From a virus: a DNA stretch of 64,000 nt. Under the pieces are notes generated by a model. That model saw only the letters and a program-made list of their open reading frames with translations, did not search any database and had not been told where the DNA came from. A program made the translations under genes and the position numbers. How positions within the stretch are numbered: position 1 is the first letter of the stretch; each line of letters begins with the position of its first letter. The stretch lies in IMG/VR virus record IMGVR_UViG_3300036770_005778, positions 11,032 through 75,031 of that record, one strand, 5' to 3'. Positions 4,470 to 14,057 of the stretch are shown in pieces.

Positions 4470-5085
4470 TTGGTGCTCGAATTACATTTCCGTGCGCGGT
4501 CGTAGACAAGAGGCCGTGCAGAAGTTGGCGGATGCCTTTGATGCAGGTGAATTCTGCAATGCAGTGATCCCCTGTCCAGAAGATCTACTGCGTGATGGCA
4601 GTAGCACCCACGGCGGTCCTAACGCAGATGCCTACGACCAGATCCGTGCAGAGAACAAGGCCAAACACGGCTACGACAACTGGTATGACTTCAATGTGGC
4701 CAATTGGGGAACCAAATGGGACATCACTGTCAGTTCAGAGTGCGAGCGTGACGAAGACGGATTGAGTTTCAGCGGACAGTTCGACACAGCCTGGTCGCCA
4801 CCTATGGGCATCGTAGAGCGATTGACCCAGCAGGGCTACGATGTCACCCTCTACTACTACGAGCCGGGCATGGGCTTTGTAGGCAAGTATGAGGACGGTG
4901 TAGATGACTACTATGAACTGTCAGGTTTGGACAGTTCCACCGTGGCGGCCACCATCGGTGACGAATTGGACGACTTCTTTGGCATCTCTGAACAGATGGC
5001 CGAATACGAGTCAGAGCAGGAAGAAGAAGAGCTCACAGAATGGATCAAAGATGGCGCTGACAAGCGTGGATTGGTCACTGTATGA
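4462..5085 (+). CDS. DUF1281/YubB-like (ferredoxin-like fold) phage protein
   Basis: MPNWCSN start, WYDF..NWGTKWD, FDTAWSPP and YYEPGMGFVG motifs. Confidence 0.75.
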   Translation: MPNWCSNYISVRGRRQEAVQKLADAFDAGEFCNAVIPCPEDLLRDGSSTHGGPNADAYDQIRAENKAKHGYDNWYDFNVANWGTKWDITVSSECERDEDGLSFSGQFDTAWSPPMGIVERLTQQGYDVTLYYYEPGMGFVGKYEDGVDDYYELSGLDSSTVAATIGDELDDFFGISEQMAEYESEQEEEELTEWIKDGADKRGLVTV

Positions 5086-5273
5086 GAACTTACCGTTTCC
5101 AATTTGAAGTGATCTGTGCCGGCCAAGGTCGGCCCGATCTCAAGAGAGTCGAAGACATGCTGGATCTCAGCATGCAGGATCTGGTCATGGACGACGAGTT
5201 TGTCGCCGCCCTAGACGAGACGGAAGCGGTGACCATCCAGGTTACGCCGCTGTTTGGTGATACAGATGGTTGA
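5082..5273 (+). CDS. hypothetical protein
   Basis: ATGA coupling; stop within next TTGACA. Confidence 0.7.
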   Translation: MRTYRFQFEVICAGQGRPDLKRVEDMLDLSMQDLVMDDEFVAALDETEAVTIQVTPLFGDTDG

Positions 5274-5298
5274 CATCTGGATTGGTTGAGTATATAAT
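5270..5298 (+). promoter_or_regulatory. sigma70-type promoter
   Basis: TTGACA-N17-TATAAT. Confidence 0.85.
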
Positions 5299-5346
5299 TA
5301 ATATACTTGGTAGTTAGTTAACGCACACACACTTAGGAGATTTAGA

Positions 5347-5745: not shown

Positions 5746-6129
5746 ATGATCATCGAATTCCTTATAGTCTTTGCTGTGGGTTTTTGGTTGGGCAGCCTCT
5801 TCCGGGGTGCCTGGATGGCTCTGAGTTTCCGTGAAATCCTCAAGGATCTAGGAGTCACTGATCAGCAACTGCGTAACCTAGCAAAGAAGAATGGCCTAGA
5901 TCTCGATGATCCAGAACCCACTGCTCGAAATGAGAAAGACGATCTTCCGGTGCTAGAAGTCCGCATCGAACAGCATCCAGAAGGCCTGTTCGCATATCGC
6001 AAAGAGGACAACTTCTTTATCGCACAGGGCTCAGACCGCACCACACTGATGGAGAACCTGGTCAACAACCTCACCAACGTCAGGGTCGTGGTAGCCAAAG
6101 AAGACGGGGCTGATCTGATCAACCCCTAG
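5746..6129 (+). CDS. membrane-anchored hypothetical protein
   Basis: Start ATG 5746, 4 nt after TAAATA; N-terminal hydrophobic helix. Confidence 0.7.
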   Translation: MIIEFLIVFAVGFWLGSLFRGAWMALSFREILKDLGVTDQQLRNLAKKNGLDLDDPEPTARNEKDDLPVLEVRIEQHPEGLFAYRKEDNFFIAQGSDRTTLMENLVNNLTNVRVVVAKEDGADLINP

Positions 6130-6132
6130 GCA

Positions 6133-6150
6133 GTTAGTAAGCACTTACTT
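6133..6150. repeat. left boundary palindrome of the TC/CC-free island
   Basis: GTTAGTAAGCACTTACTT; core AGTAAG-CA-CTTACT (6136-6149) is a perfect inverted repeat. Confidence 0.7.
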
Positions 6151-6184
6151 AATCCCGACTACGTTACTACACTATTATAAAAAA

Positions 6185-6250
6185 CACTTGCAAATTGGGC
6201 TGTGTTGCGCTATAATGTTTTTGTGTTAGTTAATAAGCAAATAGGAGCGT
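6185..6250 (+). repeat. 66-bp promoter/RBS cassette, copy 1 (TTGCAA-N17-TATAAT)
   Basis: Matches 6464-6529 with 3 mismatches; -35 at 6188, -10 at 6211. Confidence 0.9.
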
Positions 6251-6253
6251 AAT

Positions 6254-6439
6254 ATGCAACAAGTAAACAATGTTTTAGTAGCACTGCAAACAGCACACGC
6301 AACAGTGCGCATGGCTAAAGACTACGAGCAAGAAGAAGCAGTAAACGACACAGCGTTTGCAATTGTGGAACTACTGCGCACACTGCACGACAACGATTTT
6401 GACATTGCAGATTTAGCACAGCAAGCGTTAGAGATGTAG
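6254..6439 (+). CDS. island gene 1, small acidic proline-free protein
   Basis: Own promoter and AGGAGCG RBS; 61 aa. Confidence 0.8.
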   Translation: MQQVNNVLVALQTAHATVRMAKDYEQEEAVNDTAFAIVELLRTLHDNDFDIADLAQQALEM

Positions 6440-6463
6440 CATAAACGCAACAGCACTACACAG

Positions 6464-6529
6464 CACTTGCAATTTGGGCTGTGTAGTGCTATAATGTTTT
6501 TGTGTTAGTTAATAAGCAAATAGGAGCGT
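6464..6529 (+). repeat. 66-bp promoter/RBS cassette, copy 2; -35 in loop of a 13-bp hairpin
   Basis: TTGCAA 6467, TATAAT 6490; AGCACTACACAGC(6452-6464)/GCTGTGTAGTGCT(6478-6490). Confidence 0.9.
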
Positions 6530-6531
6530 GT

Positions 6532-6864
6532 ATGTTAAAAATTACAAACACTACAGTAGAGCGTGATGAAGAAGAAGGCATGACTTACACGAGCTATGAC
6601 GTAGAAGGCTTTGCTACGCTAGACGGTACGAGCATTTGGGACTACGACTATGCTAAGGAAGGCACACAGGTTAAAGTTACGCACATAGGCGTGACGGAGT
6701 ACGACGACGAAGATTACGGCAAGAGCATTTATGTGACGCACGACAAAGGCTGGGAGATTTACACAGACAGAGGCTTTGAGCAGAGCATTAGTAGTGTGCT
6801 GGGCTTTGACGTTACGTTTACAGAGCAAGGCATGCAAGACGACGAACTTGCGAGCATGGAGTAA
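6532..6864 (+). CDS. island gene 2, strongly acidic proline-free protein
   Basis: Start ATG 6532 after AGGAGCG; 110 aa, about 26 D/E versus 7 K/R. Confidence 0.8.
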   Translation: MLKITNTTVERDEEEGMTYTSYDVEGFATLDGTSIWDYDYAKEGTQVKVTHIGVTEYDDEDYGKSIYVTHDKGWEIYTDRGFEQSISSVLGFDVTFTEQGMQDDELASME

Positions 6865-6875
6865 CTTTTACGCAA

Positions 6876-6914
6876 CACTACGCACTTGACATTTTGGGTG
6901 CGTAGTGCTATAAT
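6876..6914 (+). promoter_or_regulatory. sigma70-type promoter with -35 in loop of a 10-bp hairpin
   Basis: TTGACA 6886-N17-TATAAT 6909; CACTACGCAC(6876-6885)/GTGCGTAGTG(6898-6907). Confidence 0.9.
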
Positions 6915-6942
6915 GCTTACACACTAAACAAACGGAGCGAAT

Positions 6943-7260
6943 ATGCAACTAGCAACTACAAAACAAACACGTAAAATTGTAAGCAACTACTTTAACGGTA
7001 TTAGTTTTAGCGGTAACAGTTGGACAGACAAGTGTGCAGGCGACGAGACTATGCGGCGTGTGGCGTTTAAGATTTGCGGCGGTAGCATGGAAGCAACTAG
7101 GCTAGAAACTATACGCAAAGACTTGCAGGCGCTGTTTATGCTGGCAGGCTTTGCTAACGAAGTTAAAACAACGGACAGCACGAGCAAGCGTGTAGGGCTT
7201 TTGGCATACTGTAGGGACGACAGCGGTTGCTACGTGCGTGTTAAAGCACGGGCAAGTTAG
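6943..7260 (+). CDS. island gene 3, basic proline-free protein
   Basis: GGAGCG RBS; 105 aa; all Ser codons AGY. Confidence 0.8.
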   Translation: MQLATTKQTRKIVSNYFNGISFSGNSWTDKCAGDETMRRVAFKICGGSMEATRLETIRKDLQALFMLAGFANEVKTTDSTSKRVGLLAYCRDDSGCYVRVKARAS

Positions 7261-7271
7261 CACTAACTAAC
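7254..7271. repeat. right boundary palindrome of the TC/CC-free island
   Basis: AAGTTAGCACTAACTAAC; core AGTTAG-CA-CTAACT (7255-7268); reverse complement matches 6133-6150 at 14/18. Confidence 0.7.
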
Positions 7272-7272
7272 A

Positions 7273-7296
7273 GGGTGTTGCGTTTTTGCAACACCC
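7273..7296. repeat. inverted repeat GGGTGTTGC-N6-GCAACACCC
   Basis: 9-bp stem; same TGTNGC-N6-GCAACA core as 1312. Confidence 0.6.
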
Positions 7297-7317
7297 CCCG
7301 GCCCCGCTGCTAGCCGG

Positions 7318-7346
7318 TTGACAATTGGCGGGTTTGGCTGTAGAAT
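7318..7346 (+). promoter_or_regulatory. sigma70-type early promoter
   Basis: TTGACA-N17-TAGAAT. Confidence 0.85.
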
Positions 7347-8641: not shown

Positions 8642-8860
8642 ATGAAAGACATTGCACTGAACGTAGCCAACATAGCCTATAAGACCGTGATTGGCATCAT
8701 CATACTGCCCTTTATCGCAGTGGCTTTTGGCATAACCAAACTGCTGGGCGGCGAGCCCCTCAGCATGGACGACATGGGCGCGGGCTTCATGATCATGTGT
8801 GCCATAGCCATTGGCTTAGCGATCGCTACGGTAGCATTCGGCATAGGATACCTGCTGTAA
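8642..8860 (+). CDS. two-TM membrane protein
   Basis: Start 8642 after AAGGAGCG; two hydrophobic segments. Confidence 0.75.
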   Translation: MKDIALNVANIAYKTVIGIIILPFIAVAFGITKLLGGEPLSMDDMGAGFMIMCAIAIGLAIATVAFGIGYLL

Positions 8861-9081
8861 TGCCGTTAACTGCCCTAAAATGGCTGGGCACTGGGTTTAC
8901 CATACTGGGAGCCCTGCTGACGAGCCTGGGATCATATGATCCTTATAATGTCACAGCATTCAACCTGGGTGCGGTGTTTTGGCTGTGGGCTTCGATCCGT
9001 ATGCGAGATCCAGCGCTGATCACTGTGAACGCAGTGCTGTTGACAATCTATGTGTTTGGCAGTATACTAAGACTACAGTAA
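8860..9081 (+). CDS. three-TM small membrane protein
   Basis: TAATG coupling; hydrophobic throughout. Confidence 0.7.
   Translation: MPLTALKWLGTGFTILGALLTSLGSYDPYNVTAFNLGAVFWLWASIRMRDPALITVNAVLLTIYVFGSILRLQ
9040..9068 (+). promoter_or_regulatory. sigma70-type early promoter
   Basis: TTGACA-N17-TATACT. Confidence 0.8.
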
Positions 9082-9658: not shown

Positions 9659-9704
9659 GGTCATGGTGGGGTCTATGGTGGCCGACCGGTATACAGCGTA
9701 GCAT

Positions 9705-9722
9705 GTTAGTATGCGCTAACTT
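9705..9722. repeat. third copy of the island-boundary motif
   Basis: GTTAGTATGCGCTAACTT, 15/18 identical to 6133-6150; at the end of the early region. Confidence 0.55.
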
Positions 9723-9827
9723 AGGCTAGTGGTCTAAAATCACCACCCTGAAAATTTAAGTACTCCACCTAAATTTTTTGCGCGGCTGTTTTTTTCCCCT
9801 GCAGGACCCATTTGGGCTACATACTGT

Positions 9828-10682
9828 ATGTCCACACTACACACTTTTGGCTGCTCTATCACACAGGGATTCGCTTTACCGGACCTAGTACGACCTATCA
9901 CTGACCACCATGGACAGCCGCTCACGGGACAGCAGATCCGTGATCTCGATCGACCCATAGATTGGCAAGACATACACGTCTACGAACCCAGCCAATTCGC
10001 TTGGCCTGCTGTGTTAGCCCGACTGCTGGACCTTCCCGTACACAATCATGCACGTCGCGGAGCCTGTTTTAACCAGATCGCTCGACAGTGTGTCCTGGCT
10101 GCTCCCACTATACGATCCCAGGACACAGTCATCGTGATGTGGACCTATCTGAGTAGGATCAGCCTGCAGTGGCCTGCTCGCACCGCAGTACCATTCTGTA
10201 ACCTAGTCGATCCCGCGGGACACGGTTGGCGCACTCTAATCCTAGGTTTTAACAAGTGGTTTGGACTAGATCGTGCTGATCAAACACGTGATGATCGTGT
10301 GTTAAAGTACATACACGACAGCACACGTATCACACATCTAGATCCATTGGGAGTCTACGATAGATACTATAATCATCTAGTTTTACAGATCACGGTCGAC
10401 GGTCTACTGCAGAGCACAGGTGCTCGTGTCATACACCTTTCAGTAGAGCCCGAATCCTATCTTGATCAACTGGAAACTGCAAGGCTAGAACTAGAACCTT
10501 CGCTGCAAGCACCCTATCAAATACCCGATCCTCGCAGTTGGTATACGCTCGACACGGATCATCACAGTTGTCGCGTCATACTAGATCCCTCAATTCCACC
10601 AGCAGAAAATGACATGCATCCCAGCTGCCAGCATCATCAAAACTTCGCTGATCACCTCCGCCGCCTGTATTTTTCTGGCTAG
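9828..10682 (+). CDS. SGNH/GDSL-like hydrolase-fold protein
   Basis: N-terminal FGCSITQG block, C-terminal DMHP (DxH-like). Confidence 0.6.
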   Translation: MSTLHTFGCSITQGFALPDLVRPITDHHGQPLTGQQIRDLDRPIDWQDIHVYEPSQFAWPAVLARLLDLPVHNHARRGACFNQIARQCVLAAPTIRSQDTVIVMWTYLSRISLQWPARTAVPFCNLVDPAGHGWRTLILGFNKWFGLDRADQTRDDRVLKYIHDSTRITHLDPLGVYDRYYNHLVLQITVDGLLQSTGARVIHLSVEPESYLDQLETARLELEPSLQAPYQIPDPRSWYTLDTDHHSCRVILDPSIPPAENDMHPSCQHHQNFADHLRRLYFSG

Positions 10683-13172: not shown

Positions 13173-14057
13173 ATGACCACTATCTATGTTTTCGGTGATT
13201 CTTTCACTGTGCCCAATCAGATCTATACCAGCAGCGGTGAGCAGGGCCTCTACGCCAGTCCTGGTGAAAGTTGGAGCCAGGGCGCTCCGAAACCCAAATG
13301 CCCCACATGGATCAATCTCGTAGCCGCGGCCCTGAGCCAGCAGCATCAGGAACTGGATTTGATCAACTACAGCCAGCACGGTGTGGCACAAGATTTCTGT
13401 TGGCTGCAGTTGATCAAAGCCTTGCCCGTGATACGGCCCGAAGACTACGTGATCGTGGCAGTGACGCATCCCAACAGATTTTGGTATCTGGAAGAGCATC
13501 CCAATCTGTCAAATCATCATATAATCAATCTAGAAAACATGCTGACCGAACAGCAGGCTTTGGCCGTGAAACTGTTCATGCAGCATATACAGCGACCCCA
13601 ATTGGACACACTGCACCAGACCAACCGCATGCGCAGCCTGGCCTATGAAGTGTTGAAACGAGGACTGCGGCGCCCTATGATGCTGAACTGTTTTGCTTCA
13701 GACATCACGGAAGTAGAACAACTAGATGATCTCATGTGGGCCAAAGGCAATCTTTTCAGCATACAGGCTCTGGAATATCTGGACGGCGAGGAAGAAAGCA
13801 CTACGTTTTTCAATGGCGTCGACTGCCGTTACAATCATCTATGCCTCAGCAATCACAGGATCTTGGCTGATAAAATACTCAGTGCGTTCAACCAAGGCAC
13901 TGTGGTAGATCTGGATCAGGGATTCCATCAAGGGCTGCTCAAAGACGGAGTGCTAGAAGACACTGAGTTTTGCCTGCAAGAACTGGACTGGGATAAACTA
14001 CAGTTTACCAGACAGCAAGAGAAAACCAAAAAATATCCTTGGTTAAAGTTGAGATAA
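13173..14057 (+). CDS. SGNH/GDSL-like protein
   Basis: VFGDSF block I; DCRYNHL C-terminal motif. Confidence 0.65.
   Translation: MTTIYVFGDSFTVPNQIYTSSGEQGLYASPGESWSQGAPKPKCPTWINLVAAALSQQHQELDLINYSQHGVAQDFCWLQLIKALPVIRPEDYVIVAVTHPNRFWYLEEHPNLSNHHIINLENMLTEQQALAVKLFMQHIQRPQLDTLHQTNRMRSLAYEVLKRGLRRPMMLNCFASDITEVEQLDDLMWAKGNLFSIQALEYLDGEEESTTFFNGVDCRYNHLCLSNHRILADKILSAFNQGTVVDLDQGFHQGLLKDGVLEDTEFCLQELDWDKLQFTRQQEKTKKYPWLKLR

Follow-up and report, generated by a model that had tools for sequence, protein, structure and literature searches.

We analysed a 64,000-nt stretch of viral DNA (the window; bases 11,032–75,031 of the linear 75,031-nt IMG/VR contig IMGVR_UViG_3300036770_005778), in which two short palindromes lie at the borders of an island whose + strand contains no TC or CC dinucleotide (YC, where Y is a pyrimidine). 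It was found that the two palindromes are not a private pair but copies of a short motif that spans several lineages and is present in many lake phages. Our tentative reading is that a dimeric protein uses this motif like an operator where early promoter-gene cassettes meet, with the motif perhaps doubling as a seam for recombination. An earlier, sequence-only reading had taken the palindromes as sites for a dimeric protein that delimits the island. The proposal of a dimeric-protein site gains support from conserved half-sites that show no covariation, from arrays of sites, from helical phasing and from the presence of the motif at left island ends, but the delimiting role was not upheld. Coordinates below are those of the window unless given as contig positions.

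Copies of the motif in this phage and in other viruses

The palindromes are perfect inverted repeats with 6-nt arms and a 2-nt centre (6-2-6), as had been described: AGTAAGCACTTACT at 6136–6149 (W1) and AGTTAGCACTAACT at 7255–7268 (W2). They have 12 of 14 bases in common, the difference being a swap of A and T at arm position 4/11. The 18-mer comparisons made earlier were also reproduced, with 6133–6150 matching the reverse complement of 7254–7271 at 14 of 18 positions and matching 9705–9722 at 15 of 18. A third copy (W3, 9708–9721) is present where the + strand promoter array ends, as had been noted, but its palindrome is imperfect. Single palindromes of this form are common, there being 38 perfect 6-2-6 palindromes in the contig; the number of perfect pairs with 12 of 14 bases in common expected from 100 shuffles was 0.

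The contig encodes a 1,143-residue tail sheath, T4-type helicases and a UvsX-like recombinase, and its large terminase has 52% identity to the counterpart in Pseudomonas phage PA5oct; therefore, judged by its gene content, it is part of the genome of an uncultured jumbo myovirus (CheckV completeness 21%), which appears to be lytic. Over its first 25 kb, which end at about window position 14,000, the contig has a G+C content of about 51%, and the remainder has about 38%, a sharp split inside a single phage (window 1–14000 compared to 14000–64000). This 25-kb part consists of small + strand genes, every one of them preceded by a promoter and a AAGGAGCG ribosome site, and contains about 25 consensus or near-consensus TTGACA-17-TATAAT promoters, exclusively on the + strand. 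This early array is made of repeated promoter cassettes, and the gene order is mosaic among relatives.

When the whole contig was scanned with the relaxed pattern RGTWNGCRCTNACT, six copies were found compared to 0.007 expected, and these were not scattered: all six are on the + strand and within the early promoter array in the first 25 kb, with none in the other 50 kb. They are as follows.

Contig 4803 and 4853, + strand: copies 1 and 2, outside the window, downstream of a three-gene tRNA cluster and the terminator of this cluster
Contig 9758, + strand: copy 3, outside the window, within the tail of an open reading frame
Contig 17167 (window 6136), + strand: copy 4, left of the island; this is W1, CAGTTAGTAAGCACTTACTTAA at 6131–6152, a canonical member of the 20-nt family with its perfect 6-2-6 palindrome at 6136–6149
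Contig 18286 (window 7255), + strand: copy 5, at the right end of the island; this is W2, AAGTTAGCACTAACTAAC at 7254–7272, a spacing variant
Contig 20739 (window 9708), + strand: copy 6, at the end of the + strand promoter array; this is W3, ATGTTAGTATGCGCTAACTTAG at 9703–9724, an imperfect palindrome

W1 and W2 are the only perfect palindromes among the six, the copies at contig 4803, 4853 and 9758 being imperfect like W3. Five of the six are followed by a promoter whose −35 hexamer lies 45–115 nt downstream, and the motif is present at only about 5 of the roughly 25 early promoters. The half-sites of W2, GTTAG and CTAAC, are 4 nt nearer each other than in the family consensus, and the TAG stop codon of the third island gene (7258–7260) falls inside this copy.

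W1 matches a 20-nt motif, GTTAGTAAGCACTWACTTA(C), that is present in no fewer than 60 different contexts on viral contigs. The exact 17-mer TAGTAAGCACTWACTTA occurs in at least 119 viral-contig stretches representing 88 distinct contexts, and we estimate that a few dozen of the 17-mer matches could be due to chance. In the 88 contexts, the 17-mer is preceded by GT in 70% (6% expected) and followed by C in 69% (25% expected); because of this flank enrichment, about 60 contexts are taken to be a genuine 20-nt family, GTTAGTAAGCACTWACTTAC. The family consensus read from these sequences is GTTAGT-RRGC-ACTNAC-TTA, a quasi-palindrome with two overlapping symmetry registers. The half-site spacing is constant in most copies, the exceptions being W2 (4 nt shorter) and an element at the right border of the island in the closest relative, G001 (4 nt longer).

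Three kinds of context were seen. In jumbo contigs related to this phage, a single copy follows a tRNA gene and precedes a promoter; elsewhere, lone copies lie immediately upstream of intrinsic terminators; and in a third kind, 5–11 degenerate copies (GTTAGTG-NN-CACTAAC, GTTAGTGAGCACTTACTTAC and the like) form arrays with a spacing of about 23–35 nt, adjoining a C-rich tract and TGTGGACAA repeats. Such arrays occur at 24 loci. In 18 of them the array adjoins a conserved 149-residue open reading frame that precedes the large terminase gene, the genome being of a type that is approximately 40 kb long and encodes a portal, a family A polymerase and a primase. Locus L037 (4940–5400) is an example with 5–11 motif copies, as are L018, L126, L027, L029 and others, all from small podovirus-like phages. 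After arrays of the L037 type come three tandem TGTGGACAA copies, which are DnaA-box-like, and these are followed by A/T-rich DNA and by the same 9-mer in inverted orientation. The array region may serve in packaging recognition, as an origin or in immunity; that of one small phage had no match among cultured phages. By terminase, phage DSL-LC05 and a phage from Manatee Spring are the closest relatives in culture, and neither has the motif; in the Manatee Spring relative, the terminase of which is 76% identical, other repeats, GTTTACATAAAC, occupy the place of the array.

Two simpler origins of the copies were considered and rejected. Anchoring to stop codons is not supported, the reading frames upstream of copies being mostly short, and a likeness to the D-loop and anticodon stem of tRNA does not indicate tRNA fragments, since ARAGORN and Rfam gave only the three real tRNAs and the motif has no D-stem. 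A full-text literature search with the motif sequence found no relevant paper.

Symmetry, folding and distance to promoters

The two symmetry registers are AGTNAG-CA-CTNACT (register A, that of the sequence-only reading) and GTTAGT-N4-ACTAAC (register B). Covariation was scored on approximately 60–100 family copies with the search seed excluded. Positions 4/11 of register A were Watson–Crick pairs in a fraction of 0.36 of copies relative to 0.37 expected from base frequencies, and pair 3 of register B in 0.44 relative to 0.48 expected on the same basis. Pairing is at the expected level, and therefore there is no sign of compensatory evolution. The A/T swap that had been called compensatory is indeed seen between W1 and W2, but these are two sequences only, and the variable positions are independent across the family; the swap is most simply explained by, and is probably due to, chance. 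Conserved half-sites in the absence of compensatory covariation at the variable positions, together with the arrays of sites, resemble the binding sites of dimeric proteins.

The predicted RNA fold of W1 had an energy of −3.5 kcal/mol (z 0.3), on par with shuffled sequences. A scan for intrinsic terminators called neither palindrome, and W1 has no U-run and a stem that is not G+C-rich. A stable stem-loop near promoters is absent at W1, and is present in some other gaps and after W2.

7273–7296, + strand: strong hairpin GGGTGTTGC-GTTTTT-GCAACACCC, directly 3′ of W2

The descending arm of this hairpin terminates the YC-free run, the fold of 7248–7300 has an energy of −24.6 kcal/mol (z −4.6), and the hairpin is kept in G001. 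An Rfam scan that covered locus L013 and the initial 12 kb of the contig, upstream of W1, W2 and W3, returned the three tRNAs only.

The distances from the motif centre to the −10 hexamer were found to cluster at 10.5-bp steps (R 0.56, permutation p 0.018, n = 16 non-redundant cases, which are partly related and for which promoters were called by consensus alone). This clustering is suggestive of a motif position tied to promoters on one face of the helix.

The island border in relatives

The YC-free run was confirmed on the + strand and is 1,139 nt long, whereas the second-longest run lacking TC and CC in the 75-kb contig is 89 nt and the YC frequency is 0.116. The features of the island and its flank are as follows.

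6156–7294, + strand: YC-free island with three small genes (6254–6439, 6532–6864 and 6943–7260), each with its own promoter
6188–6216, + strand: first island promoter, TTGCAA-17-TATAAT; the W1 centre is 45 nt before its −35 hexamer
7318–7346, + strand: next promoter, TTGACA-17-TAGAAT; the W2 centre is 56 nt before its −35 hexamer, and synteny with G001 stops here

As had been reported, the run starts 7 nt after the end of the W1 palindrome; the W2 palindrome lies inside the run, 26 nt before its end, in agreement with the earlier figure of about 25 nt.

In the closest relative, G001 (loci L007 and L013), the island proteins are 84–90% identical to those of this phage, and there is a YC-free run of 1,448 nt that begins 5 nt after the end of AGTAAGCACTTACT. 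DNA homology between the two phages starts at about 6133, at the motif, with unrelated genes upstream, and stops at about 7328, at the −35 hexamer of the next promoter, with different genes downstream. On these homology limits, therefore, the island is identified as a movable module with the motif at its left end. At the right border of the G001 island, a longer hairpin, GGGTTAGTG-tgcaag-CACTAACCC, stands in place of W2. At the site homologous to W3, the motif orientation is reversed in G001. The noncoding DNA after W3 (9722–9830; TGGTC.AAAATCACCACCC...AAGTACTCCACCTAAATTTTTTGC...) is more conserved relative to G001 than the adjacent genes, and the G+C skew switches sign around it.

W1 is kept exactly in G001, in two more jumbo lineages, G007 and G006, and in dozens of other contigs. 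Both G007 and G006 have the order tRNA, motif, island: the island of G007 is an 874-nt run with one interruption, that of G006 (a complete 364-kb genome) is about 1 kb with seven YC compared to about 115 expected, and a relative of G006 has the mirror-image arrangement on the other strand. The islands of G006 and G007 (L016/L375 and L031) contain genes different from those of the islands that encode the 110-residue protein considered below. The motif is thus at the left edge of the island in this phage, G001, G007 and G006, and therefore the left-border association is real, holding in four jumbo lineages and two gene contexts. No motif was found at the right border in G007 or G006.

The proposed role in delimiting the island did not extend beyond these cases. 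Four of the six copies in this phage adjoin no YC-free segment, and the right palindrome is not kept by relatives. We examined 80 viral loci (L376–L455) with homologues of the 110-residue island protein (6532–6861); about 45 of the 80 have a YC-free or YC-depleted island, and the motif is at a border only in G001. Likewise, islands are present in the more distant relatives L008–L012, including a complete 400-kb genome, and the motif is nowhere in these records. The motif is therefore largely absent from the borders of homologous islands, and it does not delimit YC-free islands generally. Coding strands that avoid TC and CC are themselves widespread, being seen at the same approximately 45 loci in islands of up to 2.7 kb (for example, 2,042 nt with zero YC in L381 and 2,251 nt with one YC in L382); more distant homologues of the 110-residue protein are not YC-free.

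Within the island, the second and third promoters (6440–6500 and 6866–6915) have 11–12-bp inverted repeats around the −35 hexamer, GCACTACACAGC...GCTGTGTAGTGC and CACTACGCAC...GTGCGTAGTG; where these repeats differ from one promoter to the other, the changes are compensatory. The island promoters of the relatives L008, L009 and L012 resemble these repeat-flanked promoters. Near and distant searches of the island DNA against cultured phages gave no match, and searches of PHROGs and Pfam assigned no family to the three island proteins or their neighbours.

Public sequencing runs were examined as assembled contigs, in which rare variants are lost. These contigs contained many variants of the island region, some of them joined differently at promoter repeats. 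In one contig, from the probable source run, 6208 is joined to 6488 with 42 shared letters, so that island gene 1 is dropped; this may be a true variant without this gene or an assembly collapse across the promoter repeat. Other variant joints lead from 7247 and 7251 back to island promoters, and loose ends were found at 6110 and 7276. There were no strand-changing joints among the joints listed. In this phage, most cassette joints are at promoters without the motif.

Candidate binders, explanations and known systems

The sole clear winged-helix protein of the early region matches Pfam HTH_39 (E 3e-8; contig 8787–9059, L006). It is conserved in jumbo relatives, and in L009 the gene (4865–5155) is directly upstream of a YC-free island. 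A 107-residue early protein (contig 4977–5300, L006) is encoded after the tRNA cluster and two motif copies; it adjoins two copies here and three copies in L097/L131. It has 2,587 metagenome homologues, the best 120 of which are at least 80% identical, and it may be GIY-YIG-like from an IIY...YIG...R...E pattern recognised by eye, with no Pfam match. The scan of early proteins gave no recombinase, and none was found near the motif.

Bacterial genomes were also searched. TTAGT-N4-ACTAAC palindromes occur there in tandem at promoters: at loci L135–L254, tandem GTTAGT-N4-ACTAAC copies overlap promoters in Firmicutes, Spirochaetes and others, and the downstream genes, judged by N-terminal sequence, are feoA/feoB-, flavodoxin-, ferritin-, phosphoglycerate mutase- and DtxR-type regulator-like. 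Actinobacteria have sites of this kind with a TetR-type regulator gene on one side and an acyl-CoA carboxylase gene on the other. These tandem palindromes are likely to represent regulons for which we found no name, and their position beside DtxR- and TetR-like genes shows the format to be one typical of helix-turn-helix dimer operators. As a clue to a host factor they were rejected, being local operators of several regulator types and uninformative on the host; a single-site motif scan of bacterial genomes gave no matches above chance and was equally uninformative on this point.

From the distribution and symmetry of the motif, we infer a mechanism in which a dimeric, sequence-specific DNA-binding protein, encoded by the phage or by the host, would bind the predicted operator-like sites. 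These lie in the gaps between early transcription units, 45–115 nt upstream of a subset of sigma-70 promoters, and would be on one helix face relative to them. The bound protein would modulate or insulate the downstream early promoters. As a block of at least 20 nt common to the cassettes, the motif would also be where crossovers take place during the shuffling of promoter-gene cassettes, which would explain why some lineages have it at the left end of their YC-free module. This combined reading is the leading one, though still tentative. Several observations weigh against it. No cognate binding protein was found: homologues of the HTH_39 protein are also present in relatives that have no motif, and no proteins are common to this phage and the array-bearing small phages. 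The small, partly related sample behind the phasing result counts here as well. The spacing of half-sites at the right border varies, being 4 nt less than the consensus in W2 and 4 nt more in G001, which fits a hairpin better than one rigid dimer, and the left palindrome of G001 is lengthened to a perfect 8-2-8.

The motif might instead act in RNA, as a short hairpin located in the 3′ untranslated regions of early transcripts that would attenuate read-through, protect 3′ ends or mark processing, and that may pair with a TTAGTTA tag in early 5′ leaders. All six copies being on the transcribed strand between units is consistent with this, as are the 8-2-8 palindrome of G001 and the right borders of both phages, where the hairpin is kept and the sequence and loop length are not. 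The copies at contig 4803 and 4853 stay paired only if G-U pairs are allowed, which also points to RNA, and the flank of W2, TAACTAACA, is a 9-nt complement to the leader of island genes 1 and 2. However, the longest complement between the right-border element of G001 and its changed leader is 5 nt, and this pairing of a 3′ element with 5′ leaders was rejected because the match does not co-vary in G001. Besides the weak fold of W1, the folds of W3 and the contig 9758 copy are no better than those of shuffled sequences, covariation is absent from the family copies, the orientation at the third site is reversed between the two phages, and no Rfam family was found in the first 12 kb of the contig or in locus L013. 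We regard an RNA element as unlikely. A passive linker, namely a functionless intergenic patch kept conserved by homologous recombination between cassettes, is a similarly doubtful explanation. It accords with the repeated cassettes and mosaic gene order, with the left breakpoint of the island module at the motif, with the joints in public-run contigs at promoter repeats and at 7247–7276, and with the shuffling mediated by promoter-early stem-loop (PeSL) cassettes documented in other phages (PMC2839356; PMC4122927). It leaves unexplained the identical 20-mers in unrelated small phages, the arrays and the promoter phasing, and most cassette joints here have no motif.

Recognition by a nuclease or recombinase, with the motif as a nick, cut or inversion site that sets the start of the strand-specific YC-free zone, would account for its position 5–11 nt before a YC-free or YC-poor zone in one orientation in the four jumbo lineages and two gene contexts; the small, conserved 107-residue protein with its GIY-YIG-like pattern, negative in Pfam, adjoins copies. 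Against it are about 44 other islands with no border motif, the four copies here with no island, the lack of strand changes among the joints listed in public contigs, the lack of a recombinase near the motif and the unproven nuclease identity of the 107-residue protein, and we consider it quite improbable. Still more doubtful is a related suggestion, in which the motif and the short YC cluster that follows it are the start signal of a strand-specific process entering the island. If this were true, the coding strand might be exposed by nicking or loading at the motif, or read-through RNA might be processed there; the downstream lack of TC and CC would reflect adaptation to a pyrimidine-C-specific nuclease or deaminase; and the 20-mer in the arrays of co-occurring small phages would indicate one DNA-binding activity that unrelated phages of one host share or contest. 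Chance likeness of two unrelated small palindromes is scarcely credible: the 38 perfect palindromes in the contig and an A/T covariation that is not a property of the family speak for it, but the shuffles, the six related copies and the exact conservation of W1 in G001, G006, G007 and dozens more contigs effectively refute it.

Several known systems resemble the arrangement proposed here in part. The PeSL cassettes of T4-type phages consist of a promoter and a G/C-rich terminator hairpin, and their shuffling is documented (PMC2839356; PMC4122927). Like them, the early region of this phage has dense arrays of small genes with unassigned functions, each with a strong sigma-70-type promoter and with stem-loops near. 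The cassettes likewise act as exchange points with mosaic gene order, the island module being swapped between the motif and the next promoter, and breakpoints lie in cassettes, the module from 6133 to about 7328 having other neighbours in G001. In contrast to PeSL, the element here is a 20-nt AT-rich quasi-palindrome, 45–115 nt upstream of about 5 of about 25 promoters, that is also present in unrelated small phages.

The stoperators of mycobacteriophage L5 and the C1 operators of phage P1, both temperate, are dispersed sites for a known phage repressor, those of L5 being asymmetric, and one protein binds these repeats and acts on transcription at or between units. The motif is similar to them in being one short sequence repeated intergenically across a phage genome, and different in that no binder was found, that there are 1–6 copies per jumbo genome and that the phage is seemingly lytic. 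Operators of dimeric helix-turn-helix proteins with a 5-4-5 or similar layout include the FNR/CRP-type boxes and the DtxR/IdeR iron box, TTAGGTTAGSCTAACCTAA. The dyad symmetry, the GTTAG/CTAAC-type half-sites and positions compatible with one helix face are shared with these operators, whereas the motif sequence and spacing match no box that we can name. The actinobacterial version of the site is at a single locus per bacterial genome and so is not a global host site there. Intrinsic terminators and repetitive extragenic palindromic (REP) or bacterial interspersed mosaic elements (BIME) are also intergenic inverted repeats near gene ends; unlike these, the motif has a stem that is not G+C-rich, no U-run at W1, no anchoring to stop codons and far fewer copies.

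The motif is not a general boundary signal, and therefore an explanation of YC avoidance is to be looked for in the transcripts or the DNA of the island itself. Should a protein bind the motif, it would offer a way to study how a giant phage from a lake distinguishes particular early units, among them the unusual island that avoids TC and CC, and the 20-mer GTTAGTAAGCACTTACTTAC is a ready bait for pull-down. It would also indicate a DNA-binding activity common to unrelated phages of the same waters.

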